Assembly: GCA_028713415.1 (NCBI GenBank)
Contig: JAQTOI010000003.1
Span: 1 to 60,962 of the forward strand
From: Candidatus Omnitrophota bacterium
GTDB taxonomy: Bacteria > Omnitrophota > Gorgyraeia > Duberdicusellales > 4484-171
Reading direction: 5' to 3'
DNA length: 60,962 nucleotides
The notes beneath the pieces are model-generated. The model made no database searches. It saw only the letters and a program-made list of their open reading frames with translations, and had not been told where the DNA came from. This document shows positions 1-60,100 of this stretch, piece after piece; the stretch's first letter is position 1; every line of letters starts with the position of its first letter. Both the position numbers and the translations under genes were made by a program.

Positions 1-140
1 ATAAGTATCCAGGCGCAGATGAGAGAATCGAAATAAAAGAAAAATCAAGCTCTCCTGTTTCCTCAAACTATCTGCCTTCGTACAGCCCGCTTATATTTTC
101 TGGAATAAACTTAAACGACATTCTATCTGGCACGGGAGCG

Positions 141-3100
141 TTGGCCGTAATAGCATTTCTAGGCTGGATAATAACCAAAAAGGCATATAGGTCTATCGCG
201 CAGGCGCGTAAATTCAAAACTCTGGTTAAGTCCATAGAACAAGGACCATCTTCGGCAGCCTATCAGAGAGAGTTGATACGATTGTTCCAATATTCCCTGA
301 GCCCCAAAGAAAGAAACCACGCAGAAGCGATGCGCATGTTTAAATACTTAGGCGAGTTATTAGAGAGCCAAGGCGCCAACTCTAAAACAGCGCAGTTTGT
401 ATTAGACTATTTTCTGTTCTATGGAAGGTTTGTTTCAATAAAGGCGTTCCATTTTACCAGCTGGCTGCTTAAAGCAATCAGTTATGATCTTAGAGCAGGA
501 ACAGATGTGCATGTCTTTTTCATATATCCAAGGAGCTGGGTGCTGCACCAGTTCATGTTAGCGGAAGCGCGGAAAATCAAAGAAACTTTAGAACGTAACG
601 GTAAACGCCGCGCAGCAAGATCTTATGATTTGGAGCACCGTGTGCATAAGCTTTATTTTACCAATGATATGGCCGCCTTAAATGCTTACCCTGAACATGG
701 AATAGAGCGTTTCAGCTACCAAGCGCAGTTAGCGTACCTATTTACTCAAGGTGTTTTTGGACACAAGAAAGTTATTTTTGTTGATGTTACTTCAAAGGAC
801 AGCCCTATACGTTATATCTCAAGGCTTATAACTGATAAAGAGTTAGTATCTCTGTTGTCTGGCGCGCAGCCGCCTTTTATTAATATTTCGCCGATTGAGA
901 AAGAAAGCGTTTCTCTACGCGTGTTGGTAAATCAAGGTAGTCCCGATTCCGCTCCGGACTTTGATTACTATATGCGCGGCGATAAAGAAAGCCGCCTGGC
1001 TGCGCAGGGGCGTTCCATTGCCGTGCTCTTAGGAGAAATCTTAGAGCCGCAGATGAGGCTTGAATTCGACCCAATAGAATTTGTCGGTGCCCAGGGCAGG
1101 TGGCAAGAAGGGCTTAAAGTGGTTCAGTCACCGCTTCATCGCTTAGCGGCTTTAAGCACTACCTTCGTTAACAGGGCAGTTCGCGAAAATATTCGAAATC
1201 TTCTTAAGATATCGTCTAGCCCTCTGAATACTCGCGCGGCAGCTATTTCTACGACGGCAGGGCAAAATAGCGTCCATCAGTTGTTGCGCCGCAGAGCAGA
1301 AAAGTTCCCCGATGCCTCATCATCTCCGTTAAATGATTTCTCAAATTCTATATCAGGTATTAATTTATTAGGCCTATATCCCGACATAGAAGGAGGCAAT
1401 ATCAATAAGCCTCACGTGGAAAGGGTCCATGCGTATGGGACACGCCTGTTGCTTGCCATGGATGTGCCGCAAGCTTTGCTGGATGCCTTTGGCCCCGCAG
1501 CCATCGGCCATGATCTTGGCGGCCTGCAGACATTTTCTATAGAACAGGTGGGCGAGGTTATAAAAAGGAATATCGCGCTGGTGGAAGAAGTGACAGGTTT
1601 GCCGATTGGCCAGATTCGCGCTGAATCTGCACGTAGATTCCCTAAAGATGGTTTATATTTCAAAAGGGTAGCTCATGACGCGGCAGGAAAAGTTTTTCTG
1701 GCACCTGCGCTTAAAGCGAGGCTTCCGGAAAGCCTGAAACAAGAAGAATTAGAAAACCAGCTTTATTCTGAAACCAGCCATGAAATATGCGGAGTATACC
1801 GCTTACGTGAACAAGAGGCCCCGGTAACGGCAGCTCAGGAATTCATTATTGCTCATCACTTTTTCTATCCCGAAAACTTTGAAGGCATGGATAAATTGGC
1901 CGCAACCAGTGGCCTTTCGGTTGCCGGAGTAAAGTTAGTACTGGATACTTTGATTTTTAGTGATGTTTTTGAGAACGGAAACAATGCCGATAGGCTGCGT
2001 ATTTTAAGAAGAAGCCCTAAAAATCCGGAAGGAATAAGATACCAGCCTTTACAAAGGACATTTGAGTTATTTGATCAGTTTTATGGCGATAAAGGCTTAA
2101 GCAGCTTGCCCAAACAGACCATGCTTGAAATATTAGCCGGATGGCATGGTGCTGCCCTTCGCGATGAAGTAATAGAAATTATTAAAGAGGGACGTCCGGA
2201 TACATCATCTGATGCTTTCCGGGAAGAAGAACTTGATTGGGTGCGGCAGCAATTAAGAAATTACGCATCCAGTCCTCTTGTTGATAACAGGAACGAGTAT
2301 CCTAGCGCTTTAGAAAACGCGACTATATTTTGCCGCGATTCAAAACACCTCATCGAAGGCTTACCTGATCCTTTTGGCCAGGGTGAGATTGTATATCCGG
2401 GATTTAGCAATTGGCTGCATGAGGTGCTTGAGGTAACATTTGCGGAGAAACTCTTGCAGTATAACCAGGGAGAACAAAATTTATTAACTATTAACGCGTT
2501 TCAGCAGTTAATGAATTATAGATATACTCATTGGATGGCGCTTATGGAAGCGCTCCAGAATGCCGAAAAATTCGGCTTAAGTAAATATGAAATATACGAA
2601 AATGCTTATCACTTTTTGCTAAGTGGTTTAACAATTTATTACCTTAGTCAAAAAGGAGGCCGCGGCAAGAGAAAAGGGAAAATGTTTGAGGCCATGGTTG
2701 ATGATGAGAGCAGATACTTCGTGCAAGAACAGGATAGAGGAGATCTTAAGCCAAGAGTTTTAGAAATTTTCCAAAGGCGCTTGCTTCCGGATCACAGAGA
2801 GGCTTTTGCTGAAGTCGAGCAATTTATGCAGCGCGCAAGCGTTTCAGTTGTTGGGGGTTCGTTGCCGGGTATGGAGAGGCAGGCTTCCATAGCAAGTAAA
2901 GAAATTATGAGTATGAGCCTCATTACTGGTTTGCATATGAGGATGAAGGAGAGAACCGTTACAAAGCAGAATTTTCCGGATGATAAACACGCATCTCAAG
3001 CCACAGGATCTAGCCGGAAAAAAGCGCAAAGCGCCAAGGCGCAAAATCAGCCGATGCTAAAGGAACCGAGGCATCCCGTTTTAGAGATTCTTAGAAAATT

Positions 3101-6100
3101 GCCTTTTAGCGAAAGCATGGGTATTCCATGGCGGCAATTTTATCTTAATATGCAGGCATTCGAAAGGTTATTTTGTTTAAAAACGGATACACTCTATGAT
3201 CTTATCGGAAAGATCATAGCTGGTTTTAATACAGGCATAGAAGAGACTCATCACGGCCTGGTTCAAGCGGAAATGAGTCAGATCATTGGGATGGTAGAAG
3301 ATTTCTTTAGAATAAAGAAGGCTTTAAAGTCTGCGAGGTTTTTCAATTACGGCCGCGATTCCGGAAGAGGCACAAGCCTTGTGTTTGCGCCCGCGAAAAT
3401 TTCCGCTTCGAAGCTGATTTCTTCCCCGCTTTCAGCTGATACATTGGTAGAATTCACCAGAGAACAAATAGGTATCTATTCCGGGCTTTTCCATTTGCCT
3501 TGGCAGGAATATAACCCGGTTTATCTCCCTGTACAGCCTAGCGCTGAATCTAACGGTAAACAAAGCATTATCAGTCCGCTTGCGATTAAAGAAGGCATGG
3601 CTCTATTGGCTCTTGACCAGAGGCAGCCGGTCATCAATCCTTTAGTTATCGCTGGTGACTACTTTGAAGCAACTCGGCTTGATCCAAGAAAAGTCATAGC
3701 GGCAATATTGCCTCATGAAATCGGGCACAGCATATTATGGACATTAGGCAGGTCAATAGAAGGCTTGGGGACAATTTGGGATATAGTATCTGCCGAGTTA
3801 GATCTGCCCGAATTGTTACCGCCGGAGCAGCAAGCATTCAGCGGTCTGGGATTGAGCGTTATTTTCGGTGCAAGAATCTTGCGCCCAAGTTATGAAATAA
3901 TAAGGATACAAGATGTTAATATTTTGTATTATCACATTCGTGAAACTATTTGTAACGCAATAGGATTGCAGCTAATACCCAGTCACATTTTTAAAGCAAA
4001 GGATGCCCATCCGGATTATTCTAATCACGACACTTTATACGCGTATGCGCTTGAATACTACGGAGAACTTTTAGAAAAGATAATCGCTGTAGCTGATAAT
4101 TTAAGCCTTACTTCGGACGCCGCAGAGGCCGTTCCGACGTTAGCAAATGCCTATAACCCTTTTGAGGATGTTATTCTTGAAGACGGTTCAGCTCTTTGGT
4201 CAAAGTATTACTACCTTAGATTAGCCGTTATGGAAGCTTTCTTTAAAGACGCGCAATCGCTTGAAGGTCTTAATCCCGCACTTCTTAAAGAAATCGGAGA
4301 GTTAATCCGCGGCATAGGGGCCGCTATCGACAGGCTGATAGCAGCGTGGCCTAATGCGCAGGCGCGAAGAGAGAAAAAACTTTATAATGATCTAGTAGCG
4401 GCATTTTCCGAAACTCACGCGAACGCGCGTAAAATTGTTCTCATTCAGCCCCGCGATAAACGTCTTAGTGCTTTTTCGGATAAAAGAGTTTCAAGCCCGC
4501 TCTCAAATGGCGAAGCAATAGCCTTCAATAACCCGACAAATAGTTCAAACCCAACGCGCGGGCCTCCGGCGGATAAGGCTCACGAATTATCCTCTTCAAA
4601 TTCTTCAGAGGAATTAACCTCTAGCCCCGTACAAAACGGCCTGGTTTATAATCCGGGTTTAGCGACGATAGGGGGCCTGGCTAAGGTCACCTGCGGCTTG
4701 GCGATATCTTTAGCTAAGGCCGGCTACAGAGTCATTATTTTTACTCCCGGATATAGCCATCCAAAATATAACTACGGCCAGGTGCCTTCAACGCTTATCA
4801 GCGATACCAGAGATGTTAGTGTAAGCTTAGGAAGCAAACAGGAGAGGCTCACCATAAAAAAATTAGATTTAGGCCTTATTAGCATAGTTACGCTCACCCA
4901 TCCTGTCATTTTTGAACGGCCCTATGTTGACGCATTAAGAACTGAACAAGCAGTGTTATTTTCAAAGGGTTCACTGGATGTTATGACACAGCTAGGCTTG
5001 GTGCCGGAAATAATTCACGCCCACGACTGGATGGCCGGTCTGGTGCCCGCATATTTAACCGATACTCCCAGATACCAAGAATATTTTACAAACGCCGCTT
5101 CGTTATTTACTATTCATAATGCCTTGCACCAAGGATGGGTCGGCATGGATAATGCTACAAGAATCAGTGTTTCGCGGAACATAATAGAATTTAAAGATTC
5201 CGTCAATCTGATGAAAGCAGGCATAGTTACTGCTGACGCTGTAAGCACTGTCAGCCCTCGCTATGCCCAGGAGATACAGACTTCTGATTACGGTTGCGGC
5301 TTAGAAGCATTTTTAAAAACCAGAGGGGTTGTCGGAATTAATAATGGCCTCTGCTTAGATTGTAACCCAAAGACCGCGGATATCGCGGCCAATTTCAGCG
5401 TTGACGACGGAATTGAGGCTGTATTGCCTGCGAAGTTAGAAAACATGCAGGCCATTCAGGAAAGATTTGGGTTAACAAAAGATAGAAATAAGTTTCTCGT
5501 CGTCTTGGCAGCACGCCTGGATAGGCAAAAAGCAATAGAACTTCTGGTTGAAGTTATCCCCGCGGTATTAGGCAAATACACAGACGCGCAATTCGTCATA
5601 GACGGCCCGCAGTTCGCTGATCCGGCCATAGCCCAATTGCATACAATAGCGCAGAGGCAGGATTTTCAGGGAAGATTTGCGTTCCGGCCGGAGCAGGAAT
5701 CCAATAATTACAGCGTCCTTGCGGGAGGAACGCTAAACTTAGCATGGAACGCGTGGGCGCCATTTGATTTAGTCGCGCGTGAAGCTTCGCTTTTGGGAAC
5801 TCCTTCAGCGCTTAGGCTCACAGGAGGTTTAGCTGAGTTTGTTCCCTATGACGAACAAACAGGCGAGGGTGAAGCCTTTGCCTCCGATGAGTATAGCGCA
5901 AAAGCACTTCTTGAGGCAATTGAACTTGCGAGAGATACCTATTACAACCGGCCTTCACACTGGAAACTAATAGTCGAGCGCGGCATGCGTAAAGATTTTA
6001 CCTGGAAAGAATCGACATGCCGATATGTAGAGCTTTTTACGCGGATGCAAAGAACTAAATTCGGCAGAGCTCTACCCATAAACGGCCTGATAACGATAGT

Positions 6101-9100
6101 TACTCCAGAAGCCTATCCTAATGTCCTGCAAATGGCGCTCGTTCGTTCCAGTTCCCCCTCATCAGCGGTTTTTGATTTGGCGACTGTCAGAAAAATTCTA
6201 GTGTATACGCAACCTGTGCTTCGAATCCAGGTGGTTAGCATCGAAGAAAAAGGTAAAACCATCAAAGCCGCAGTGCTTATTTCTAAAGACAACACCAGCG
6301 ACAGGCTCGTTTTTATATCTTCCAAAGACCGAGAGTTGGAAGTTGATAGAGATATGGGTGTTTGGCTGTATCTTACATTGGGTGCGTCTCAGGCAGTTTG
6401 TGTGCAGCCAGGCGCCTCAAACCGCATGGTAAAAAGAAGGCCGATTTTGTTACGAGTGGCCGCGCCTACTCAAATTGAAATAAAAGAAGAAGACGTTCTT
6501 CTGCAAAGTATTCCACAGAGCGGAGGCGTAATTGTTGCGCGGAACAAAACCAATCTTGGCCCAATAAATATAGAAAGGCGGCAATTTAATGTGGGCAATC
6601 GTACCTTTGAGGTTACGGGCATCTCAGAGGAGCCTTACTTGCTTTTTGTTGCTGATGAGGCTGGAAGGCTTCTGATGCTTGCCCCCCATGACATACGGCA
6701 AGCTAAAGAAGGAATATGGTTTGAATTTATCGGCTCAAGCAGCGGCCGGAAGACGGATAATCCCAGAGTGCAGATTTTTGCTCCAGGCCTTGATATCAGG
6801 CGTCCGGATATGAAAAAAGCCGGCCTAGGAGAGTCAAGTTCTGCTGTGATTGCTACGTATAGCGTTGATTTATTTCGGTTGCGGCAGCTTAACGGCCAAA
6901 GTACCTCTTCCGTGGCTGGTGGAAACTTTGGTTCTGCCGCAGCCGTTTCTTTTAATAAAAATCGTTTGGTTTCCCTCAACGCTTTAAGCTCGCCTGTTTC
7001 GCCGGATGCGAGTCAAGGCGGGCCTAGCGCAGCTACTATCCAAGCTACAAGCCGCAAGCTACAAGCCGCAGGCAGGGCAAATGGTATAAATAATATTAGC
7101 CCCGCACTTTCTACAAGAATAAATATCGAAGTAGCAGAAAGTGCGGGACAATTCGCAGACGGCTTACGCCTACGATTTACGTTCGCACGCCTGCGCAGCA
7201 GGCAGGCTGCCGTAAATCGTCTGCTCATTGGAGGTGTATCATGGTCCGTGGTTTTGAAAACCTTGAGATTATCAATTTCACTCATACCAACAGAGGCATT
7301 TTTATTTGGGCAACATATCCGGGATGGGCTTCAAAATACATTTTCTTTCTCCAGGGTAACGGGAACCTTAGAGGCAAAAACAGCGGCGGCGCATGGGGAG
7401 AGGTTTCAAGCACTGCCAGTAAAATTATCAGAGAGAAACTTTGCTCAACTATTTCAGACAGATTCCGGATATCATAATACAGATTTAGGCTTGGCTTCTT
7501 CTCCGGATGTTGCAAACGAAGAAAAAATCGAAAGCATCCTCGCGGAATATCTTCTTACCCCGGGTTTTTGGCCCGATCAGCAGAGAGTATTGGATCGATT
7601 AGAAAAAGAGGGGATTAATCCAGACTATTATGTACCCTTTTTGTCTAACATGGTGGAAAGCAGGAAAGAGGAAGCTGCCCAAGTTAAAGACGATATACCG
7701 CGTGAAAAATTTAGCGGAGAAACTGACAAGTTAGATAATTTAAATAGGCTTGCGGTATTTTACTACATACTTACCCTATTTGAAAATTCCGTCATTTCCG
7801 GGATATTATGGCGTTGGGCAACTTTTGCTTATATGGGCCCTGAAGAAATCTCCAGCCATAATATATTCTTGAGAACTTTGATGCAGGGATTAGAGACCGC
7901 CATAAAAACAGATCATTATCACGGAGATACTCAATATGCCGAAGGTTTCGCCTGGTATATTTATCATTTCTTAAGAGATTTCCCAAGCTGCTACATTGCT
8001 GAGTTTTTTGACTATTTAGTTGACCGTCACCCCGCTCATCACAATAGCCAGGCTCCGGCTGTCGCAGGCCAGGTTATTATGACTGATGAAGAACGCCGGA
8101 GCCTTAAGCAGGCTTTTAGAACTTCACGCGAAGCGGAAAGGGAATTTGAGGATGATAAATCTACAATTGATGCGGTTATTGAAATATGTTTAGGCGACCA
8201 TGTTGATGAGTCGCTTGACGTGCAGGAAGCAGCCAGAAAATTACGCGCGAGCGGTATTCCCCTTCAGGCAATAATCAGATGTTTACAGATGAGGCTTGGC
8301 ACAGGCCAAAAAATACCGCAATCAATGAACAGGCTTATGGCTTTGCTTCATCACGGGCCCGGCCAGGGCGCAAAAGCTCCTTCTGTCGTAAATGCAAATG
8401 ATTGCGGATTGGGAAGAACGCATCCTACTACGCCAAGGCTTCGTAGGACAAGGATGATCGCAGATGGCAAGACCGCGGCTGAACGCGGGGTAAAAACAGG
8501 CTCATCGCCTTTGGATGGAAAAGGTTCTTTGGGTGGGTTACGCGAGGTGATACATATAGTCAGGGCCTTAAACGTCTCGCTTAAAACTTCAAGAGACTGG
8601 AGGGCTCAACGAAAACAGATTCAAAAGCTGGGTAAATTAGCCGTCCCCTTTGCCGTCACAGCCTTAGTCCCCATACTTGAAAATCAGGATTTAGAGATAT
8701 TGCATCGCGATGTGGTAGAGGCAATAGGCAGGTTTGACGGAAATAATTTGAATAGAACCCGTTATGCTCAAGCCGCCCTCGCATTACATACGCTTATCTG
8801 GCGCAGGACTTATTTCGGCCTTCTTGAAATGGATGCGCTTGCCAAAGACGCTTTTGAAATTTTATGTAAACAGATAGCGCTTGCTATACCCGATATCCTG
8901 GACATAAGCCTTTATGTTCTGGAAAAGATTAATATTGTTTTTTACATGGCGAATGAAGCTGAATGCCGCTACTGCATGCAATATATGCTTGATGCGGCAA
9001 AGCTCGCGCTCGAAAGAAAAAAGTTTCGTGAGGTGCCGCTGCTTGTGACGGAAGTGAGACAAAAAGTCTGCGAACTTAAGGGTTATTTAGCGCGTACCGA

Positions 9101-48100: not shown

Positions 48101-51100
48101 GGCCAAAAACGTGCTTCCTGGAGATTCACCGTGCGCATCAGGCCCTGTTAGTTCATCTGCTTCAGCCGGCAAACCGCAAAGTGTGCAATTTTACGGCTGC
48201 GGCACGCCTGAACGCATTCTATCAGCTAAAACATTGCCCAGCCCTTCGGAGTACCTCAGGGCGCCGACACATGGTGGCTTCAGCCCTCTGGCTTGGTTCG
48301 ACTACGCTCACCACGAGTCGGCAAGGGCGTCGTTGGACTCCAGCCCACCAATGGCAAATGGCAAAGGGCGAATGGCTGATAGCAATTCAAAGACGTCGCC
48401 GCAACGCGGCTCCGGCCCCGGAAGTATCCGGGACGTCGCAAATAGCTCCAGCCCCGCATCTGGCTCTGAGCAAAAAGCAAAAGAACAGCTCATCGTCCAG
48501 CTAAAAGAAACGCTTTTGCAGGTTCTTACCGCAGAATCAATAGCTCGGTTTAACGAAGATGATTTAATCGGTTTGGCGCTTTTTACCTTGGAGGACTTGC
48601 CGAGAGCGCAAAGGATAGAGCTTATCGGCGCGGCATTAGAAGCTCACAGTATGGACCGTCAAAATGCGGAAAATATCCTCATTGCCTTGTGTGACGCAAA
48701 TTCTTGTGGAAGGATAACGCCTCTTTTTGTAGCTGCAGGTATGCCTGAAGTTTACGAAAGTTCATGGCCGACGCAGAGAGAGGACACCTGGATAGGAGAA
48801 GAAGCACGGGACGTAATTAGGATGGCAATGCTTAATGTTTTTACTCAAATATTTAATTATTTTCATATTTATCCGGATAATCAAAAAACAGTTGTTGATG
48901 TCGGAGCCCGGCGCGGATGGCTTGAGAAATTATTGGGCCAGGAATGGCAAAAGGTTATAACCTTGTTTGACAAAAATGCTTTTTATCTTCTCGAAGCCCG
49001 TGAACAAAGCCTAGGAAAGAATTATATAACCGGCAGTGTTTATGAGTTGGCAAAATACTTACGCGATATAAATTTAATTCTTTCTCTGGATACATTTGAT
49101 ACCTTTTTGGATTTAAGCTGCGCCGCAGCGCAGTGCGCGGCAGCGCTTTCTCCGGCTGGATTAATTATTGTTGTCAACGGCCCGCCAGTTCAGATTGAGC
49201 CGCTTGTCCAAGAGTTGGCTGAACAGGGAATAGTTTATTCTCCTTATTGCGTCGAATTTTTTGATGCGGAAGAGAAGCGCCTTGCTGCTGAAGAAGCTTA
49301 TCATCAATGGAAAAATCTTCCGGAAGATACCCCCTCAGATTTAGCACGGAGTGTCTTTAGCCAATTTTTAGATATCCGCGATAGGTTAGCATTCGATAAA
49401 GATGAGTATTTTCAGGCTAAATTGATACGCCTGTTAAAAATGGAAGGCTTAGAAATCCTGCTTCCTTCGAAAGCTGCACAAAGAGGAATAATGGGAAAAT
49501 ATATAGGCGCAAAAGAAGAAAGGCACAGAAAAGTTTCGCCGACGGCAAATTGCTTTACCTTTTACAAAGGCAGCGGGCACTTGGGATTTGACCCTAAGAT
49601 TCCCTTGGGCAAGGTTGTTGAAGCGGTTGGCTTAAGAGTGGTTATGGCAAGAAAACCTGAACCGTCTCAGCCAAGCAGGAGGCCTTTAAGCTCAAGCTCC
49701 CCGTCAGTAAATATGACTAATCAAATACTCCAGCCCAACTTTCCTGCGGAGTTCGCCGGCCGCGTAGGTTATCAGATACTGGTTGACCGTTTTGCTAATG
49801 GTGATAGCTCAAATGACCCAACCGTTCTTGACACAATGGACGATATTGGGGGCTGGCACACCAGAGATTGGAATAAGCCTTGGTATGAGTATGACCAATG
49901 GGAGATGGACTGGGCAAAAGCAAACCGGAAACACCCCTTAGAGATTATTTGGAAACGCCACTACGGAGGGGATTTACAGGGCGTATTGGACCGGTTGGGT
50001 TACTTAGCAGAATTAGGTATCGGTTTTATTTATTTTAATCCGCTTTTTTGGGCGCCTTCACATCATAAATATGATTGCCGTTCTTTCCATCACATTGACC
50101 CCACCTTTGGCCCTGACCCCAGGGGTGATAAAGCCTTGATGTTAGAGGAAAACCCGGTTGTTCCTGCTACTTGGAAATGGACCAGAGCTGATAAATTATT
50201 TTTAGATGTTATTGAAGCAGCGCATTCAAGAGGAATTTTGGTAGTATTGGACGGTGTGTTTAATCATACTAGCCGGTATTCCTTTGCCTTCGCAGATATT
50301 TTGAGCAATAAACAGGATTCGCGGTATGCCAGCTGGTATCAAATTACGCATTGGGATAGCGAACTGGCCGATGGTTTTGACTATTGGAAATGTCTTGGTG
50401 ACAAATCTTTGCCCGAAGTCAGGCGTGACGGGGATTCTTTAGACTCCGCTTTTAAAGAATATGTGTTTAATAGTATTACGCGTTGGATGCAGCCGGGAGT
50501 CGTCGCCGGACGCAAGCGCCAAGGCGTTGACGGCTGGCGGATTGATACAGCAGATCGCCTTCCGCATGTATTCCTTAAAGAATTACACGCAAAAGTAAAG
50601 TCATTAAATCCTGGCGCGATAATTATCGGAGAAGTCTTGGCTGTTAGCCCGGAGTATCTTCGAGGAGACGAATGTGATTCCTTAACAAACTATTCTTGGC
50701 TTTTTGCCCTGCAGGAGTTTTTCATCAACCAGGAGAGCCGCATCTCACCCAGTCAATTTGCAGGGCTTATGCGCGATTTGTTTACCGCCTATCCTTCACA
50801 AGTACAAGATTATATGTTGAACTTCTTAGGTTGCCACGATACAGAACGTATTATCAGTGCGATTCGCAATCCAGACATGGCTCGACGCGATTGCGGTAAA
50901 CATTACAACAATTCAAAAGTTCTTCATAACCCCAGTTATGACATTGGGCCTGCAAGCGAGCGGGATATTAAAATCCAGCAGTTACTTGTTTTATATCAAA
51001 TGACCGCACCCGGTATGCCGGTAATTTATTATGGAGATGAACTGGGCTTACCCGGAGCAAATGACCCTTGCTGCCGCGTTCCCATGCCCTGGCATATTGT

Positions 51101-54100
51101 TGATAGAGGCGCAAATCCATTGCACAGTTTCTATAAAAAGATGATTGCTATGCGTAACCAATCGCTTGCCTTGCAACGCGGGACATATGAAGTAGTGCGC
51201 ATTGATGATGAGCGGCAGCTCTTGGCATATCGCCGTAGTTACGAAGACGAAAATGTTTTTGTAGTGATAAATAATAGCGATAGCGAACGGATTGTTTCAT
51301 TACCGCTCAATTCAATATCTGGTATCCAACCTATTGTTAATCTCGTTGATGATAGGCGATACCAGGTGCAGGATGAAAGAGTAACTCTTACTTTAGCTGA
51401 CCGCAGCGGAGCTATTTTATCTGCCCTAGGCTGTCCAGCTAAAAGCTCATCCCCCTCGGCGCGAGATTTATCAATGGCAGTACATTTTTACGGCCGCGGC
51501 ACGCCTGAACGCATTCTATCAGCTAAAACATTGTCCAGCCCTCAGGTAGCCCCCCGCGCCCCGCCGCAGGAAAACGCCGTACCTAATCGTTCTTTTTTCA
51601 ATTCCTTAACTTGTGCATCTTCCAGTTCCTTGGAAGGGGCGCTTCGCAATCAAACTAACCGGCCGCAATGGCGCAATCAAGTTAAAAGAATCATACAGAT
51701 TACTGGCTGGACCGGTACGCTTATAAATTTGGCGATTACCCTTCTTTTCCTACCACAGATTTTACCTCTCTACATACCCTTAGCATTGGAAGGTTACGCG
51801 TTAGCTCTATATTTCTTCTGGCTGAGCCGGTATAAAGATTCCCGTTTATTCCAGATGGCGATGGCTGTTATCGGCCTTGCGTTTTTCTTTGGAGTTTTTC
51901 ATGTGGCATTACCGTGGGTTATTCCTGCCGTCAGAAACAGCGCAGAACGCACATTTTCTGAAGTCGCATTGATTATCGCGGCAAGATTTGCTCTTATGCT
52001 CCCTGCCATTTTTGCTTCCAAATATTTATGTACAAAATATTTTAAGTTTTTAACACCCAACCCGAAAGCTAATTTTGAATTCAAGTGGAAAGAGGAGCTA
52101 TGGAAATCATTTAAATGGGCGTTTGTCGGCGGAATAATCGCGGGTTATTACATTTCCTATGTAGTATACAATTTTCTTTCGGTAAATATCGATATCGGAT
52201 ATACAAGTTATATCCCGTTTTTGGAGGGAAATCTTTCCATATTGGCATTGAAGGCCGCCTTTGACTTGGGTCTGGCTACTATTTTCGTGCATCATGTCCT
52301 TACGTTAGTGGTGGGCCCGGCTTTTTGCGAAGAGATGAATCTTTTAAAGGAATGGGGTAAGGGCAGTGGCAGCTTAAAGAAGTACATTAAAAAACAATAC
52401 ACTATAGCGTCCCCTTTGAGTTTCTTATTCTGGTATCCGGCTGTTTTTCTTCTTTGGTATCTTTTCCCGCATTTATCACTGGGCATGATACTTACGCAGG
52501 CGGCATTTACCGTTGTTTGGACCGTAATTTATGAACGGATTGTGCAATTCTGGAAGAATGGAGATAATTTTGTAGATGTCGAATACAAAGAAAAAGCTTT
52601 AGGCAAGCAAAGAGCTGCTTCTTCACCTTCGGAAGATTTGTCCGGCGACAAGCTTGGGGCAAGTCTGGAAGCTGCCGCTTTATCATCGAAATTTAGCGGC
52701 ATAAATTTTTCAGAAAAAAAGTTCAGACTTATTGATAAAGTAATGTTAGAGATTGACGCAGAGATCCGGCAGGAGCATCCTGAAAAACTCCTGGCAGCAA
52801 ATCTCGATGTTCAATATCAAAGAACACCGTCGCTATACGCTGTTGCAGTAATTGAGGAATTAGTTAAAAGAAAATTGATGGCTTCGCACAATAAGTTCGG
52901 CGATGTGGGCGCAGGCACGGGCGCAATGCTTATCTTGGTCGTTGCTTTGACCCAGGCCGGGGAGGCAATAGGCATAGAACCTGATGGCTACCTGCGCCAA
53001 AAAGGCCGGGAGGCAATATTACGCCTTCAGAAAATGGGCGTTATCGATGAATCCCGCATAAGGTGGATTCCAAAGGGCTGGGAGGATTCGACCGATATAT
53101 TAGGCCAGCTCGATGCCGCATATTTATATTCTCCGGTTCAAGCCCCGGATCACTGGGCGATTGACGCCAAAGTGATACGTAGTTATATGAGAACAAATGC
53201 ATATCTGCGTGTTGCCGGTGTCGGACAAAGCGGTCCGGGCGCACTTAATAATTTTTCTTGCCTCGCACAAACTTCAGCTATCGGTTCGGAGGCCCTCACC
53301 AAAGCCCACCGCGTAGGCGAGTTTTGGTTAGGCCGCCAAGCGCCGGGCGCCAGCTCGCCAAATCATAATGTGCCTCTTTCAGACGGCATGGAAGTTTTTA
53401 GAAAAAGGGTGCAGCAGGCAACAAGAAGAAACGCGGAAGGGGAGTGTGGGCAACAAGAGAAGATAGATTCTTTGATTATGCAATTGCTTACTGGCAGCGA
53501 GAAACAACACTATGATGCGCTTGGGGAGTTAGTTGCAATCAGCGGATCTTCGCGTAAGCCTTTTTTCGGGCTGGGTGATACAAGCCTTAGCTTTAAAGTT
53601 CGCAAATCCCTGGGTGAAGCGTTAGGCAGCTTGGTAGGTAAAAGAATGATTCAGGTCTGCAGAAGAATTTTTAATGACGAGCGCATAGCTGGTGAAATCC
53701 GCCAAACTGCAGCAAGGTATCTGTTTAGCCTTGGTAAACGCGTTAAACCAAGAATGATGCGCACCAGCTTCCCGGTAGCAGCCAGGTCCAGCCGTTATAA
53801 TATAGTATGCGTATGTAAAGGTAATCTTTACCGGGGTCCCTTTTTGGAATTTATGATACGCGATTACCTAAAAAGAAGGAAGTGGGGAAATTATTTTTTA
53901 GTTCGTTCTGCCGGAACTTCGGCGTGGATAAATAGTGTAGATCGTGAATATGAACTAAAAAAGCAAGGGGAAATACAGCTTAGCCTCTATCGGCAGGTAA
54001 GCGTGACGGAATCGATGCAACAATTTTATAGTGGTATTTCTCCTCGCAGGTATTTGTCTGAGCGTATGTATAAAACTGCAGATGTAATATTAACAGTTAG

Positions 54101-57100
54101 CCCGGATATTAGCGCCGTCAAAAAATCTATTTTAGTTACCGAATTCCTGCCAGAATACCACCGGTATTTTCGTCAGCCTATTCCCGATTCCGTATGCCCC
54201 GATTTCAATCTGCTTATTGATTTATACTCCAGCTTATTAAGGTCCGGTTTAGGCAAGGCTATTCAGCAAGCGGTTGGAGAGATAAAGCAAGCAAAAAAAC
54301 AATACAAAGGAAATGAAAACAACAGGGATCAGGCCTCAAAATTAGAAATTGACCGCGCCAGCTCGCCGGAACAAAGAAAGCCCCTGGTTATCTGCGGTGT
54401 GCGCGTTAGCCCAGATATTGATGAAGAAGGAATCAAAAAATGGATAAACAGGATTTTAGGTAAGTTTCCAGTGCAACAGCATGATGTTTTTATCGGTTTT
54501 CCATCGCATCCTTACATAAGCGATATAACTATTGAAGGATTGCCTATTGGTTGCGTGGTTGGCTATAACGGCCTAACCGGTAATAGACAAGAGCGCGAGT
54601 CAGATTATGTTATCTATGATCATAAAGGCACTAGAAGTGTATTCTTCATGCAATATGGCTCTGCAGTCGATTTAGATAAGAGAGCGGTATCAGTTGGTTC
54701 GTGGCGGCTTATTGTTCCTTTGTGTGCGGAGGCGATTGCTGTTTGCATGATGGATACAAAAAGTTTATTGTGCGACGCTGCGTTCATTCCGATATACACT
54801 TTAGATAGGCATGGTGACATGTATACACAGAGATTTTATAGCGCTATAAGGAAACCGGTTATGGGTATGGATCAAGGGTTGCAGAGAACTTGGCGTGTTA
54901 TTACGCCAAAAGGGATATATGATTATCAAGGCCTTTACAATTGCGCAGTTGCTTTAACTATAAATTCAGACGGTCGCAATACGCTTGGAATTTTCCGTGA
55001 AGCGCAAGCCCGCGCGAGAAATCCAGAAGATAAAACTTCAAGCCCATCAAGCTCTACTATGGCTGACCCTTGGCACCCAAATGACCGGGGTTATGAAGTA
55101 ATGGCAGAGGCTTGGTTTAGAGCTTTAACTGACCCTGAGGCCGCAGTAATCGCTAAGTTATTAACGGGGACGTCGGCACGCTCCGCGAAAGCTGCGCAGA
55201 CCTCCAGCCCCGTGCCGGAAAATACAGGAGGGACACTTCCCGACGGGATTTTATCACCCACACCTTTAAAGCAATTTGTTTTTAATCCTGCAGAGCATCA
55301 AAACGATAAGCGTCTTGCGGGGGCTGTGATAGAGTGGTTCGGCGTTGCGGGAGATTTTAATTTATGGAAGCCGCGCGAATGCGATATCAGCAGAGTTTCC
55401 CAACAAGGTAAATACGAGATAACAATCGCTTTATCGCAAACAAGCCGTTATAAGTTTGTTATTAAGTTTTTGGGTAAAGCGCACCTTGAGTGGTTTACTG
55501 ATATTCATTCTCCCTTTAGAGATAAACGCGGCAACAGTTTTGTTATAGCTCAACCGTCGGAAGTTTGCCCCCATTCATATTATAGCGGAGGAATCGCAGT
55601 GCATAGAAGTAATGTGCCTGGGCTTAGCGCGGGGCAGGTGGTAATGAGTGTCCGCTTAGCTTCAGATATTATAAAAGATAGTCAGCAACTTTTAGTAGTA
55701 AGGAGAAGGCTTTGTGAATGGTATGATTACCAAGGGCAGCCACCGGTGAGGCACAAACACGATTTATTGCACTCAATATTACTGAGTAAGCTTGATTGCG
55801 GGCACGAAGTTATGCAATATTACTTTAAGAATTTCCCATGCGCTCTATATTTTGCAATTAGCGATGCAGCCGACAATGGCCGAGACAATATTGATGTAGA
55901 AGGAATAGCGGTAGTAACGTATAGGCCAGAAGGCATATCGGTAGATTATTTAGAGATTAAGCCGCAAAATAGGCTCGGCCCAGAACGATCACGCTTTGTC
56001 GGTGTAGGCCACCAGCTCATTTTTCATATTTTCCATAGTTTACTCAAAGAATCTCACGGTTTTCGTGCTAACCTCAATACTGATACTTTACTCAGCGATG
56101 GAATTGTAGCCGGCCAGTGGTACAGCACCGCTGAAATGGAGGAACGCGTGGTAGCGCGCGTAAGAAGGACATTGAAAATTTTTAATGAAAACGTTTATTC
56201 GCGCGATTCATTAGGAAATCAAGCAAGAGATGTATTGGCAGGGTGCCTAGATGACGCGATGCGATTGCGCACAGCGAGTTCGTCCCTCCTCAACAAGATA
56301 AGAGTTTCTCCACAAGGACATGCGATACTCTCATCGGCCTCTTTAACGTTTAACACGCACGAAAGAAGCGCATTAAGCTATAGGCTTTTTAGAGATCCTC
56401 ACAGTAGTAGCAGCCCAAGCCAATTGCCGAATATACAGAAGGTTGGCTCAAGTCCTCAAACCCCTGATGCTTCAAGTCCTCTTGACGGCAATCAAGCTCG
56501 TCAGCCCAACGCCGGGCAGTTGCCGCACGTAGAATTACAGTTAACCAACTATCAAGGAAGATACAAAGTGGTTCAACCACAACCCCAAGCTTTAGCCGCC
56601 AATGGCCAGCTCAGGGGCCACCTGGACGGTTTATTAGGCCTGCTCACCACGTATATGCCAAACGGCCCTCCTTTTACACTTATAATGACTGAAAATGCCG
56701 CAGGCATTGATCATACCCGTACTTCTCATATCCTCGATACTACCATAGTCGTTACTGCACCGGCAAGCAGAAGATTGACCGTACATTATTCATTTTTTGA
56801 TTTTCCTATTACAATCCAGGCTGATATTCTACGTATCCGTTTAAGTTACTTAAATGGTTTAACAGAGCCATATATTTATCAAACCGGACTTTCTCATTTC
56901 GCAACATACCGCAGAAATAATCCCCAGTCTCCGGATGAATTAACCAAATTTTTAGAAGAGGCAGCAAGATACGGTTATATATTGCCGGATATGTACCGAA
57001 TTACTTTAGAACAATTACAAAGGCTTCATTTTGGCGACTTAGACTTCCAGCTTTTTGTTGCCGAAGGAAATCATTTTCAGGCATACGAGAAACTTGGCAG

Positions 57101-60100
57101 CCATCTTATAACTACAGGTGGACAGCATCTCGGTACATATGTAGCAGTGTGGGCGCCTAATGCTAAAAGCGTCTCGGTTATCGGAGATTTTAATCAATGG
57201 GGTGTTACCTACAGCCATGTACTCTCGAATTATTCAGGTATCTGGCACGGTTTTGTTCCCGCACTGACTAAGGACAAGCGTTATAAGTACCGCATAACAG
57301 GCGCTGACAACGTAGTGCGTGACAAAGTAGACCCCTATGCTTTTTTTAATGAACATCCAAGCCGTGGCTATGAGCAAAGCACTGCATCACTTGTTTGGAA
57401 TTTAGATTACCAATGGCAGGATGCTGCTTGGATGAACGCCAGGCGTGCAACACAGTCGTATGGCAAACCTATTGCTATTTATGAAGTTCATCTTGGTTCA
57501 TGGATTCGCAGGCCGGATAACAGCCAACTCAGTTATCGGGAGATTGCTGAGCCGTTAGCTGAATATGTGAAGGGTATTGGTTTTACTCATGTTGAGTTCT
57601 TACCCATAACAGAACATACCTTTGAAGGTTCCTGGGGTTATCAGGTGAGTAATTACTTTGCGCCAACTTCGCGTTTCGGCACCCCCCAGGACCTGATGTA
57701 TCTTGTGGATTATTTACACCAGCAAGGTATTGGGGTTATTCTTGACTTTGTCCCTGCGCATTTCCCTAAGGATACGCAAGGATTAAGCCGCTTTGACGGA
57801 ACAGAGCTTTACGGCCATGCTGACCCGGCTAAGGGAGAGCACCCGCATTGGGGCACCTACATATTTAATTATGGCCGCAATGAAGTGCAAAGTTTCCTTA
57901 TCAGCTGCGCTTTGTTTTGGCTGAAAAAATATCATTTTGACGGCTTGCGTTTTGATGCTGTTGCTTCCATGCTTTATCTTGATTATGGTAGGGATGGAGG
58001 GCCTTGGGTTCCAAATAAGTATGGTGGAAACCAAAACCTTGAGGCAATAGAATTTCTATGGAAGATAAATTCAAGAGTTTTCAGCGAAGTGCCCGGAGTT
58101 TTAACTATTGCTGAGGAATCAACTGCCTGGCCCGGGGTAACTGCGCCGGTGGCCATAAGCGGATTGGGATTTTCCCTAAAATGGAACATGGGTTGGATGC
58201 ATGATACGTTACAGTTCTTAAGGACGGATCCATTTTTCAGGCACTATGACCTGGGCCGTTTTACCGGTATCTTAAATTACAGCTTTGACGAAAGATTTCT
58301 CCTTGCGCTTTCTCACGATGAAGTAGTGCATATGAAAGGTTCATTGCCCAACAAAATGCCTCAGGAGGATTGGAGGAGATTTGCCAATGTGCGGCTGCTC
58401 TTTGCCATCCAGTATGGTTTTCCCGGAAAAAAACATATGTTTATGGGTATGGAGTTTGGCCAATGGCGCGAATGGAACCATAACCAAAGCCTTGACTGGT
58501 TTCTTTTGGATGATTGGGATTCCTGGCATGCAGGTATGCTTAGATTAGTCAGTGATCTTAACGGTTTTTATCGAAGAGAACCTTCATTATATGAACGGGA
58601 TTTTGACCGCAGGGGCGTTGAAGTAATTAACTTTGATTCTGATAATACTGTTTTGTGTATTGGCCGCAGGGGTAAAAATCCAAACGAGATGCTTATTTGG
58701 GTTTACAACTTTACTCCGATGGTGAGATACGATTACTGCGTAGGTGTACCTTGGCCTGGCATATGGCAGGAGGTATTTAATAGCGATGCTCAAATTTACG
58801 GTGGTTCAGGAATCGGCAATCTGGGCGGTGTAGATGCCCGGGAGGTTCCTTTCCACGGACGTCCTTATTCAATAAATCTTACGCTCCCGCCATTAGGGGC
58901 GCTCGTGTTCAAAGTAGTACGCGCCTCCAGTTCTCTGTTTTCGACAAGGCCGTTTCCGGGCTCCAGCCCCCCAATGGCAAATGGCAAAGGGCGAATGGCT
59001 GATAGCAATTCAAAGACGCCGCCGCAACGCGGCTCCGGCCCCGCGCAAAAACCATCAAGGCCTCTGATTATAGAAACCGTAGTGGTTGATCAACATGAAC
59101 TTGAGATACATAAACGGGAAGAGCGTTTAGATATTGTGGGAAGAGCCGTTAATGTTCTGCATACTAAATCGCCTTACTGCGGTTATTTTGGTTTTATGGA
59201 TGACAGAGGAAGGGCAATCGTCCTGCACTATTTTATTATTTCTTTTATTGAAGACGTTATTGTAAGGGCGCTGGAAAACAAAGTTCCTCTTATTTGGGAG
59301 AAATGGGAAGGCAAACCCGTACAAAGATTGGTATTAAGAAGAAAAGTCGGAAAATTTATCCGAAAGACACTATCCAAGTTTACTTTGGATGATATTCATC
59401 AATTTCTTGTAAATAGTACCATTGACCATGAAGTAAGGCACATTGAAATAGAACGAGGCCATTTTATCCCCAATAAAGGATTTGTTAGCCATGTAATTGC
59501 CGATAATGGAGAGGAATCCAGAGCCTTTATCGCCAAAGTCGCCGGAGAAATAGATTGTATGTTAACGGGTTATGCCGATAAATACCCTCCGCAACTTGAA
59601 TTCCTGGTCGACATTGATATGTTAGCATCCCCCTCGAATGCGGTAGGGTATTTAGCTTCAGCTATGCTGATGAAAGAGCTGGTTGGCGTAGATTTTGTAA
59701 GTTATGAGCAGTGGGATGAGATTAAAGCTTTCGCGGCCATCGAACAATTACGCTCTTGTTTGGATAGGTTATTATTGGGCGGATTTGATGTAACCATGTT
59801 CAGGTGGAAAGCCGCCATGGTAAAAGAAAAAATTGGCGCAGTATCTAATAGAAATGGGCGTTCCTCAAGTCCTTCAACCCAACGAAAAGCTGACGCTGTA
59901 AAGAGTAAACAGATCATAAATCTAATGAGATTTAACAATCGGTTGCGGCAGGATAACGCCAGTTCACCCCTAAGCATTCAAAGTAGCTATTATCCTGCAA
60001 CTCTGTTTGGAAAAAACGTACCTGCTGACCAAAGGCAAAGAGAAAATTTTATGTTCTATCTGCGCCAGGCCGGAAAAGAATTAAATACGGATTTTGATTT

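Follow-up and report, generated by a model that had tools for sequence, protein, structure and literature searches.

To our knowledge, the giant genes of Candidatus Omnitrophota are the longest known. Giant open reading frames (ORFs) of more than 20 kb are a frequent feature of Omnitrophota of which little is understood (Seymour et al. 2023, PMC10066038), and a 'multi-enzyme metabolic cluster' class has been defined among them (bioRxiv 10.64898/2026.06.07.730766). Because C39 and S8 domains occur in these giants, West-Roberts et al. (2023, bioRxiv 10.1101/2023.11.21.568195) suspected that their products undergo proteolysis; the cleavage points were unknown, and the absence of this information blocked an analysis product by product. 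C39 domains have been reported as frequent in Omnitrophota giants (bioRxiv 10.1101/2023.11.21.568195; bioRxiv 10.64898/2026.06.07.730766). Here, a short junction motif, Ser-Ser-Pro (SSP), is described in a giant gene of a Candidatus Omnitrophota bacterium. The window, i.e., the whole stretch of DNA analysed, comprises the first 60,962 nucleotides (nt) of contig JAQTOI010000003.1 (assembly GCA_028713415.1). No description of a junction motif or punctuation was found in the text of PMC10066038, 10.1101/2023.11.21.568195 and 10.64898/2026.06.07.730766, nor in a broader literature search; the gene class is known, and neither the punctuation at the junctions nor its variation among lineages appears to have been reported.

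The window carries a single giant ORF on the forward strand (3..60893). Translation in frame 3 meets no stop between nt 3 and 60890 and ends with the stop codon at 60891-60893; the ORF thus has a minimum of 20,296 codons, and its 5' end lies beyond the window; the other five frames contain 795-1665 stops each. GC content is 41-47%, and GC skew is positive across the whole window. The gene fits the multi-enzyme class of Candidatus Omnitrophota giants: as a single ORF it exceeds 10,000 amino acids (aa), it tiles many distinct Pfam families of which none is dominant, and contains all of the commonest Pfams of the class, namely starch synthase PF08323, GT1 PF00534, methyltransferases and HAD. As in that class, sequence conservation between giants is very low, and two of the relatives described below, P0169 and P0129, are proteins from Omnitrophota metagenome-assembled genomes (MAGs). 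In contrast to the published giants, the gene is presented here with a junction motif, which was not found in the text of those papers.

SSP occurs in frame exactly 62 times, compared with 4.8 copies expected from composition. In 1000 residue shuffles it numbered 4.9 ± 2.2 with a maximum of 13, which bears out the original prediction, made from the DNA letters and their translations, that only a handful should arise by chance. SSP is the top tripeptide of all (z = 26, with SSS second at 12.5), and it still ranks first (z = 10.9) under a first-order Markov model that expects 17 copies. Shuffling inside 10-residue segments, which keeps the local Ser and Pro content, yields 10.3 ± 3.2 copies (maximum 21). 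The permutations SPS and PSS are rarer, with 16 and 4 copies, respectively, and the flanks, mildly enriched in Ser and less hydrophobic, are not Pro-rich (5.3% Pro vs 4.7% overall). SSP is therefore an ordered motif, not a low-complexity linker. An origin of the count in internal repeats was considered and rejected, because comparison of the ORF with itself revealed only three paralogous modules (M13, M36 and M39) plus three short duplicated segments.

The residue preceding the motif is A, G, S, V, T or I in 59 of the 62 copies, in agreement with the small or aliphatic residue noted originally, and the Pro is followed by L, S, A, V or I in 49, including the 18 copies with Leu. The fuller consensus reads [AGSVTI]-S-S-[P, sometimes A]-[LSAVI], with Pro as the most conserved position and almost no information beyond -1 and +1. 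Serine codons switch between the AGY and TCN boxes (20/42 at the first Ser, 17/45 at the second), as had been proposed, and since both boxes are used at both serines, the motif is conserved as a peptide. A hidden DNA repeat was rejected because nucleotide information, apart from TCG at the second Ser, appears only where the amino acids dictate it; the DNA flanking different sites is unrelated. One caveat concerns the second Ser, where TCG is used in 35% of SSP sites vs 11% in the rest of the ORF (p = 1e-7). Other serines before Pro use TCG in 12%, and no such bias occurs at other Ser-Pro or Ser-Ser pairs; the bias could be residual ancestry of the junctions or a translational effect. SSP is thus a discrete junction mark under peptide-level selection.

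The spacing of SSP is bimodal. In all, 43 segments are at least 100 aa long (median 384 aa, interquartile range 305-563), and 20 measure 8-80 aa, comprising 19 internal spacers and a 15-residue piece at the 5' end of the window. Copies of the motif keep clear of folded domains and mark the places at which free-standing homologues begin and end. None of the 62 copies falls inside a Pfam envelope (P = 6e-5 at 14% coverage), so that, as far as Pfam reaches, the motif avoids folded cores as anticipated. All eight terminal-type Pfam edges have an SSP 4-37 aa outward; given that a random position has an SSP within 40 aa with a probability of 0.11, the joint probability is approximately 3e-8. The placements originally given for the HAD Asp, the kinase Gly-loop, the beta-CASP region and the GH13 module relative to their nearest SSP also hold.

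Two modules document this placement in detail. M07 (4620..6149, aa 1540-2049) is a full-length glycogen/starch synthase (GT5 + GT1) that shares 31-34% identity over ~91% of its length with 120 free-standing GlgA proteins of ~490 aa, the best matches being from Omnitrophica and Planctomycetota. Met1 of the free-standing proteins projects to aa 1541 (median), within the SSP at aa 1540-1542; the C-terminal end maps to aa 2024, which leaves 25 aa to the following SSSP. An AlphaFold model of this stretch, built with the alignment of these homologues, gives a confident core (aa ~1556-2024, pLDDT >90) and places each of the three SSP in the modelled part in coil of pLDDT <50. M13 (10224..11027) belongs to an uncharacterised family whose free-standing homologues have ~250 aa. 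In the alignment of this family with the paralogues M36 (31713-32780) and M39 (34875-35642), Met1 of the stand-alone members occupies the column of GSSP in M13 and in P0169; the same column holds GGSP in M36 (a degenerate junction, 31863..31886, aa 10621-10628), VSSA in M39 (within the variant IVSSAVVT, 34959..34982, aa 11653-11660) and DNGG in P0123. P0125 carries DRSSP a few residues downstream of the Met1 column. The C-termini of the stand-alone proteins align with SVSSPAQ in P0169 and VDNGG in P0123. The units therefore match independent proteins, GlgA as a full-length enzyme and the M13 family as ~250-aa stand-alone proteins, which upholds the proposal that SSP delimits protein-sized modules at the termini of free-standing homologues. 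The SSA variants proposed at 34965 and 34608 likewise align with junctions in homologues, the second being IASSAVSF (34602..34625, aa 11534-11541), just 5' of a shared ~70-aa domain.

Comparable punctuation is present in relatives, as the original prediction had suggested should be sought. A HMMER scan with aa 10571-11770 as query against 1.84 billion representatives found only 49 proteins, and each long protein among them has a recurrent short motif of its own: SSP in two, R-S-E-[LMVA]-R in three, DNGG in one and longer motifs in two. P0169, the nearest relative of the SSP type and a 2673-aa fragment from a Candidatus Omnitrophota MAG, has 13 SSP vs 0.9 expected, again with both Ser codon boxes mixed, and P0125 (1052 aa) has 3 RSSP. 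P0138 (6157 aa) has 18 R[SA][ED]xR, 17 of them RSE[LM]R (RSEMR 9 and RSELR 8, each with <0.02 expected); P0163 (6063 aa) has 20 R[SA][ED]xR, and P0151 (625 aa) has 4 RSExR. DNGG occurs 6 times in P0123 (1502 aa) vs 0.03 expected. P0129 (7094 aa, Omnitrophota MAG) contains 4 copies of the core PGAMN, 3 of them as the full RTTPGNLGPGAMNIDEPF, and P0166 (4765 aa) has several long recurrent motifs. These giants share single modules and are not colinear. Distantly related giants thus carry different short motifs (RSE[LMVA]R, DNGG and longer ones) at equivalent positions.

In the relatives, too, motif sites fall outside Pfam domains (RNase III, sigma-70 regions, methyltransferase, radical SAM and HAD), the sole borderline exception being a weak HEAT_2 envelope of P0138 (2690-2762) that overlaps the motif site at 2758. 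Some of the embedded modules belong to protein types that usually work on their own: regions 2 and 4 of a sigma-70 factor lie mid-chain at aa 3739-3972 of P0166, and two RNase III domains lie mid-chain at aa 1494-1579 and 2082-2190 of P0138, in host chains of 4.8-6.2 kAA (thousand amino acids). Seven proteins, the window's and six other long ones, have in common a ~70-aa domain (34575-34875, aa ~11525-11625, in the window) with the consensus …W..L…L……T…[IV]A..S.G.L.A..[IV]R.AL..H.I.YEEAG[MI]V; it has no Pfam match and occurs in tandem repeats in P0135, P0157 and P0138. Within 10-20 aa after this domain, SSSP is found in the window and RSEMR/RSEAR in P0138 and P0151. Internal translation starts, with RSE[M/L/V]R of the relatives encoding a Shine-Dalgarno sequence and start codon, were rejected, because the codons in P0138 (CGY TCN GAR MTG CGN) are not AGGAG-like; in the window, Met is not enriched after SSP.

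Several further observations concern these relatives and searches. The N-terminal ~450 aa of P0138 and P0163 seem alike by eye after a signal/transmembrane (TM) segment (…QDAH[SD]…), with no family assignment. The neighbours of the relatives' giant genes are housekeeping genes, with no dedicated protease among them; they include clpX (locus L021, 19779-20384), which lies 170 nt downstream of the gene for P0138, in the same locus, and is probably a housekeeping neighbour. Scans of JGI metagenome contigs and viral sequences gave no further relatives, a word-index search with a 1445-aa query returned one weak match, and in a scan of GTDB representatives the GlgA genes were only 23-30% identical and almost all free-standing.

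We propose that SSP may be the recognition site of a sequence-specific endopeptidase, which would make the product a cellular polyprotein; on the sequence evidence, we hold this reading to be evenly poised between true and false. It is suggested by a fixed, ordered motif with preferences only at -1 and +1, like protease subsites, by paired sites that bracket spacers of 8-80 aa in which no domain is detectable, by the coincidence of the motif with the termini of stand-alone homologues, and by the mid-chain sigma factor and RNase III domains of the relatives. The strong enrichment of SSP, its selection as a peptide, the 84-nt duplication that starts at an SSP codon triplet (described below) and the proteolysis suspected by West-Roberts et al. 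are also in its favour. Moreover, chemically unrelated motifs at equivalent positions across lineages suggest a co-evolving reader. In such a mechanism, an operon's worth of enzymes and regulators would be translated as one chain, and an endopeptidase, whose coding sequence may lie at another place in the genome or in the portion of the ORF 5' of the window, would divide the chain, during or after its synthesis, into individual enzymes and free the short spacers, much as viral proteases act on polyproteins; lineage differences in the motif would reflect co-evolution of site and protease. The scissile bond would lie within or adjoining SSP and is not deducible from sequence. The broader generalization, that Omnitrophota multi-enzyme giants of 20,000 to >100,000 residues are cellular mega-polyproteins cut at lineage-specific motifs by co-evolving proteases, is put forward tentatively, with slightly less than balanced confidence.

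Several points weigh against a polyprotein. Screening of the ~43 modules with Pfam (E up to 0.1) and NCBIfam gave no peptidase domain. The protease site suggested by the original prediction is favoured only circumstantially, by the strict, short motif, the spacers, the lineage-specific motifs and the mid-chain modules of the relatives, with no protease domain in 20,296 aa to accompany it; nor did Pfam reveal a C39 domain (PF03412) in the window. HExxH occurs only twice, both times in orphan modules, as HEIGH at aa 1238 (3714, M05) and HEVRH at aa 19809 (59427, M60), with ~0.7 expected by chance, and these may possibly be zinc peptidase signatures. However, M05 has no homologues, neither M05 nor M60 has a meaningful PDB sequence match, and the AlphaFold model of M05 is unusable (pLDDT 38). 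Several common protease families tolerate Pro poorly in the sequence that they recognize, proteins of the SSP type so far number only three, and the coil prediction for the flanks of the GlgA stretch is weak evidence, because these flanks have no alignment depth in the AlphaFold input.

The motif could instead be an uncleaved junction element, a hinge, docking site or modification site read by a chaperone, kinase, glycosyltransferase or scaffold partner, with the product remaining one multi-enzyme chain in the megadalton range; we consider this the main and a serious rival, though less likely than not. The absence of a protease from the Pfam and NCBIfam results for the window modules is in its favour, as are the position of the motif in predicted coil between folded units (for GlgA, outside the modelled core) and the Ser-enriched, less hydrophobic flanks. 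Ser-Pro is also a classic phospho-acceptor context, and the ORF itself has kinase-like and phosphatase-like modules. However, a hinge, which the original prediction also entertained, needs no fixed ordered tripeptide if it is passive, and local shuffles fall short of the observed count. An uncleaved element is likewise hard to reconcile with the chemically very different motifs, including the charged RSEMR, that occupy the same positions in other lineages, with paired sites around spacers lacking a domain, or with sigma-factor and RNase III modules held mid-chain.

A DNA-level origin would make SSP a scar of module acquisition, the footprint of short-sequence recombination or target-site duplication with no peptide function. 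The TCG bias, seen at SSP sites only, points in this direction, as do the mosaic giants that share single modules, and an 84-nt duplication that begins exactly at the SSP codon triplet in both copies, with unrelated sequence upstream. The duplicated segment, SSPPMANGKGRMADSNSKT[S/P]PQRGSGP, lies at 48339-48422 and 58962-59045 with 80/84 nt identity (95%). The start of this duplication at SSP, and the hint from TCG, suggest recent duplication or shuffling of segments with junctions as the breakpoints. Nevertheless, at each of the two positions ~30% of serines use the AGY box, which two substitutions separate from TCN, and P0169 mixes the boxes as well; no nucleotide conservation exists beyond the amino-acid requirement, flanking DNA differs from site to site, and neutral scars would erode, whereas 62 copies have stayed intact beside a few degenerate ones (SSA, GSP and PSP). 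The mixture of Ser codon boxes makes a neutral scar in particular improbable. Least plausible, and in our view very improbable, is co-translational separation at the Pro, a 2A/StopGo-like event that would release modules without a stop codon. It would account for Pro being the most conserved position and for every frame-3 junction lacking a stop codon, and a poor nucleophile in the A site underlies 2A skipping; however, that process has been described for eukaryotic ribosomes. The 20,296 aa contain no NPGP and no conserved 2A-like stretch upstream of -1, so the 2A/StopGo consensus D(V/I)ExNPG|P with its conserved upstream stretch is absent from the window, SSA variants occur at junctions, and the relatives' RSExR and DNGG have no Pro, all of which disfavours this part of the original prediction.

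Among described systems, viral polyproteins (picorna-, poty-, nido- and flaviviruses) resemble the window in having one ORF, units equivalent to independent proteins, a lineage-specific junction motif and small spacers. They differ in that the window's gene is bacterial and chromosomal, encodes metabolic enzymes and is longer by a factor of 10 or more; no cognate protease was found among its modules, and cutting at SSP is proposed from the sequence. C39 double-glycine leader processing, which calls for Gly-Gly (or GA/GS) at -2/-1 and a C39 peptidase domain, likewise uses a small-residue motif, and the DNGG of P0123 ends in Gly-Gly; in the window, however, the motif is SSP rather than GG, DNGG is absent and no C39 domain was found, and C39 enzymes are known for removing N-terminal leaders, not for cutting between enzymes. 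In RiPP cassettes (cyanobactin PatE) and eukaryotic repeat polyproteins (polyubiquitin, profilaggrin and nematode polyprotein allergens), recurring recognition sequences also flank the units, but those units are short peptides or identical repeats, whereas the window joins dozens of full-size enzymes that are unrelated to one another. Pro/Thr/Ser-rich linkers of glycoside hydrolases and the linkers of NRPS/PKS separate folded units as SSP does in predicted coil, but they are compositional and of variable length, in contrast to a fixed ordered tripeptide whose flanks are not Pro-rich.

The Pfam content of the ORF is a glycogen/starch enzyme set with accessory enzymes, with PF08323, PF00534, PF02446 (two), PF00128 (three), PF02922, PF13649, PF00702, PF10996, PF00069 and PF01451 along the chain; Pfam recognizes two or three methyltransferase modules, and approximately two-thirds of the chain has no family match in Pfam or NCBIfam at relaxed thresholds. 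Besides GlgA, the modules, all on the forward strand, include M19, a SAM methyltransferase (12375..13301); M21, of metallo-beta-lactamase/beta-CASP/RMMBL nuclease type (13350..15164); M23, a 222-aa HAD hydrolase (15261..15926); M42, CBM48 + GH13, isoamylase/GlgX-like (39384..41555); M44, a GH77 4-alpha-glucanotransferase (42702..44327); M45, a second GH77 plus a GDSL lipase-like domain with no SSP between them (44328..47111); M46, protein kinase-like (47112..48338); M49, a GH13 alpha-amylase with Malt_amylase_C (49695..51446); M53, low-molecular-weight phosphatase-like (53352..54359); and M59, the branching enzyme GlgB with CBM48, GH13 and Alpha-amylase_C (56472..58961). M45 has 928 aa, with ~380 unassigned residues separating GH77 and GDSL, and either is a genuine two-domain unit or has lost one junction.

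Some of these modules depart from their families. In GlgA, aa 1553-1562 (4659-4688) read LATIGGLAKV, vs the near-invariant KTGGL of homologues (Lys to Thr and Thr to Ile); other invariant columns are kept, e.g., H193, D196, W197, R359 and K364 in alignment numbering, where E440 is near-invariant. HAD motif I is DLGGV (aa 5093-5101, 15279-15305), with Gly replacing the second Asp of the usual DxD. The M13/M36/M39 family has no Pfam or NCBIfam match and shows invariant His/Asp columns (H…H.D…HPDN … S.DLD … F.SP), which suggests a metal-dependent enzyme. M51 (51534-52619, aa 17178-17539) clusters at least five strongly hydrophobic helices and is predicted to be a polytopic membrane module within a chain that looks soluble elsewhere; isolated TM-like segments occur around aa 49, 9074 and 11928. 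A signal-peptide or membrane association of SSP was rejected, as no hydrophobic segment precedes the sites and TM-like segments number only about ten in 20,296 aa. The segment FYG[CR]GTPERILSAKTL is present twice (48225-48254 and 51447-51542); the copy in M50 precedes SSP and that in M46 precedes PSP, which from its sequence looks like a decayed junction.

The individual sites were located by an in-frame scan of frame 3 on the forward strand and are given as Ser-Ser-Pro proper. The count of 62 agrees with that originally given, and 49 of the 62 coordinates are exact; for the other 13, the position given was that of the leading Ser in an SSSP or SSSSP run, which lies 3-6 nt before the SSP. Toward its 5' end, the chain carries KEKS-SSP-VSSN (48..56, aa 16-18), LKIS-SSP-LNTR (1215..1223, aa 405-407), PDAS-SSP-LNDF (1320..1328, aa 440-442), RNYA-SSP-LVDN (2268..2276, aa 756-758) and SKLI-SSP-LSAD (3420..3428, aa 1140-1142), and then DKRV-SSP-LSNG (4491..4499, aa 1497-1499), which opens a 43-aa spacer. 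EELT-SSP-VQNG (4620..4628, aa 1540-1542) stands at the projected Met1 of GlgA, and the SSP of an SSSP run (6150..6158, aa 2050-2052) lies past its projected C-terminus. These are followed by LNAL-SSP-VSPD (6987..6995, aa 2329-2331), LGLA-SSP-DVAN (7497..7505, aa 2499-2501), VKTG-SSP-LDGK (8502..8510, aa 2834-2836), LKRG-SSP-LDSH (9399..9407, aa 3133-3135), RDYG-SSP-IVGS at the start of M13 (10224..10232, aa 3408-3410, aligned to Met1 of its free-standing homologues), AREG-SSP-AAML (11028..11036, aa 3676-3678), KGTS-SSP-AKDI (11967..11975, aa 3989-3991), GEEG-SSP-SAAS (12048..12056, aa 4016-4018), FQNI-SSP-LMIR (12171..12179, aa 4057-4059), HRVV-SSP-IQPL (12288..12296, aa 4096-4098) and GWRV-SSP-GNKE (12375..12383, aa 4125-4127). 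Around the nuclease-type and HAD modules lie DKSV-SSP-TMSF (13302..13310, aa 4434-4436), SFAG-SSP-LKLF (13350..13358, aa 4450-4452), SGVV-SSP-ARDR (15165..15173, aa 5055-5057), ARST-SSP-AIKA (15261..15269, aa 5087-5089), with the HAD profile beginning 4 aa on, and FSVI-SSP-ASDI (15927..15935, aa 5309-5311).

The middle of the chain contains PPVS-SSP-LQQD (16167..16175, aa 5389-5391), NEQG-SSP-TRRE (18885..18893, aa 6295-6297), FLGA-SSP-LKEF (18936..18944, aa 6312-6314), SGIT-SSP-ASEK (20184..20192, aa 6728-6730), RSQT-SSP-VADD (20634..20642, aa 6878-6880), PQEA-SSP-LLDK (23010..23018, aa 7670-7672), SREI-SSP-FASL (24225..24233, aa 8075-8077), KGGA-SSP-NHGR (25518..25526, aa 8506-8508), TYRV-SSP-ISIF (29115..29123, aa 9705-9707), LRSG-SSP-ASLT (29208..29216, aa 9736-9738), PLAV-SSP-LAGK (29436..29444, aa 9812-9814), NRSI-SSP-LDIS (31713..31721, aa 10571-10573), IFIA-SSP-YASG (32781..32789, aa 10927-10929) and SYVG-SSP-SIIF (32877..32885, aa 10959-10961). 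The SSP of the SSSP run at 34875..34883 (aa 11625-11627) is 17-20 aa past the ~70-aa domain common to these giants, at the place taken by RSEMR/RSEAR in P0138 and P0151; KFTA-SSP-LNTF (35643..35651, aa 11881-11883) and DNRG-SSP-IENT (36861..36869, aa 12287-12289) come after it.

Along the glycogen/starch modules downstream are LRIG-SSP-LDLN (39384..39392, aa 13128-13130), QTAA-SSP-SVQP (41556..41564, aa 13852-13854), EGPV-SSP-ANSN (42702..42710, aa 14234-14236), SRIS-SSP-AAGE (44328..44336, aa 14776-14778) and SSHA-SSP-ITFK (47112..47120, aa 15704-15706), with the kinase Gly-loop GEGGVG 17 aa on. ASLD-SSP-PMAN (48339..48347, aa 16113-16115) starts the 84-nt segment duplicated at 58962, and VANS-SSP-ASGS (48447..48455, aa 16149-16151) follows. 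The SSP of an SSSSP run (49695..49703, aa 16565-16567) stands ahead of the GH13 module, and the next SSP (51447..51455, aa 17149-17151) lies 14 aa past the end of Malt_amylase_C. Further sites are AKTL-SSP-QVAP (51534..51542, aa 17178-17180), QRAA-SSP-SEDL (52620..52628, aa 17540-17542), APGA-SSP-NHNV (53352..53360, aa 17784-17786), IDRA-SSP-EQRK (54360..54368, aa 18120-18122), EDKT-SSP-SSST (55038..55046, aa 18346-18348), AAQT-SSP-VPEN (55203..55211, aa 18401-18403), PHSS-SSP-SQLP (56409..56417, aa 18803-18805), QKVG-SSP-QTPD (56448..56456, aa 18816-18818) and TPDA-SSP-LDGN (56472..56480, aa 18824-18826). The site at 58962..58970 (aa 19654-19656), which starts the second copy of the duplicated segment, is 16 aa past Alpha-amylase_C of the GlgB module, and the last two are NGRS-SSP-STQR (59865..59873, aa 19955-19957) and QDNA-SSP-LSIQ (59961..59969, aa 19987-19989).

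Whether the products of Omnitrophota giants act as one chain or as pieces is a question already posed in the literature, and the motif makes the question of cleavage directly testable. It provides a concrete parsing rule by which modules can be predicted, folded and annotated singly; existing proteomes can be searched for termini at the motif, and its variation among lineages offers a handle on the responsible enzyme through co-variation. If cleavage does not occur, the motif would still be a new kind of conserved inter-module element. If the polyprotein reading is true, these giants would be the bacterial equivalent of the polyproteins that viruses express, and the expression of metabolic pathways as polyproteins would be a strategy of cells too, not of viruses alone.

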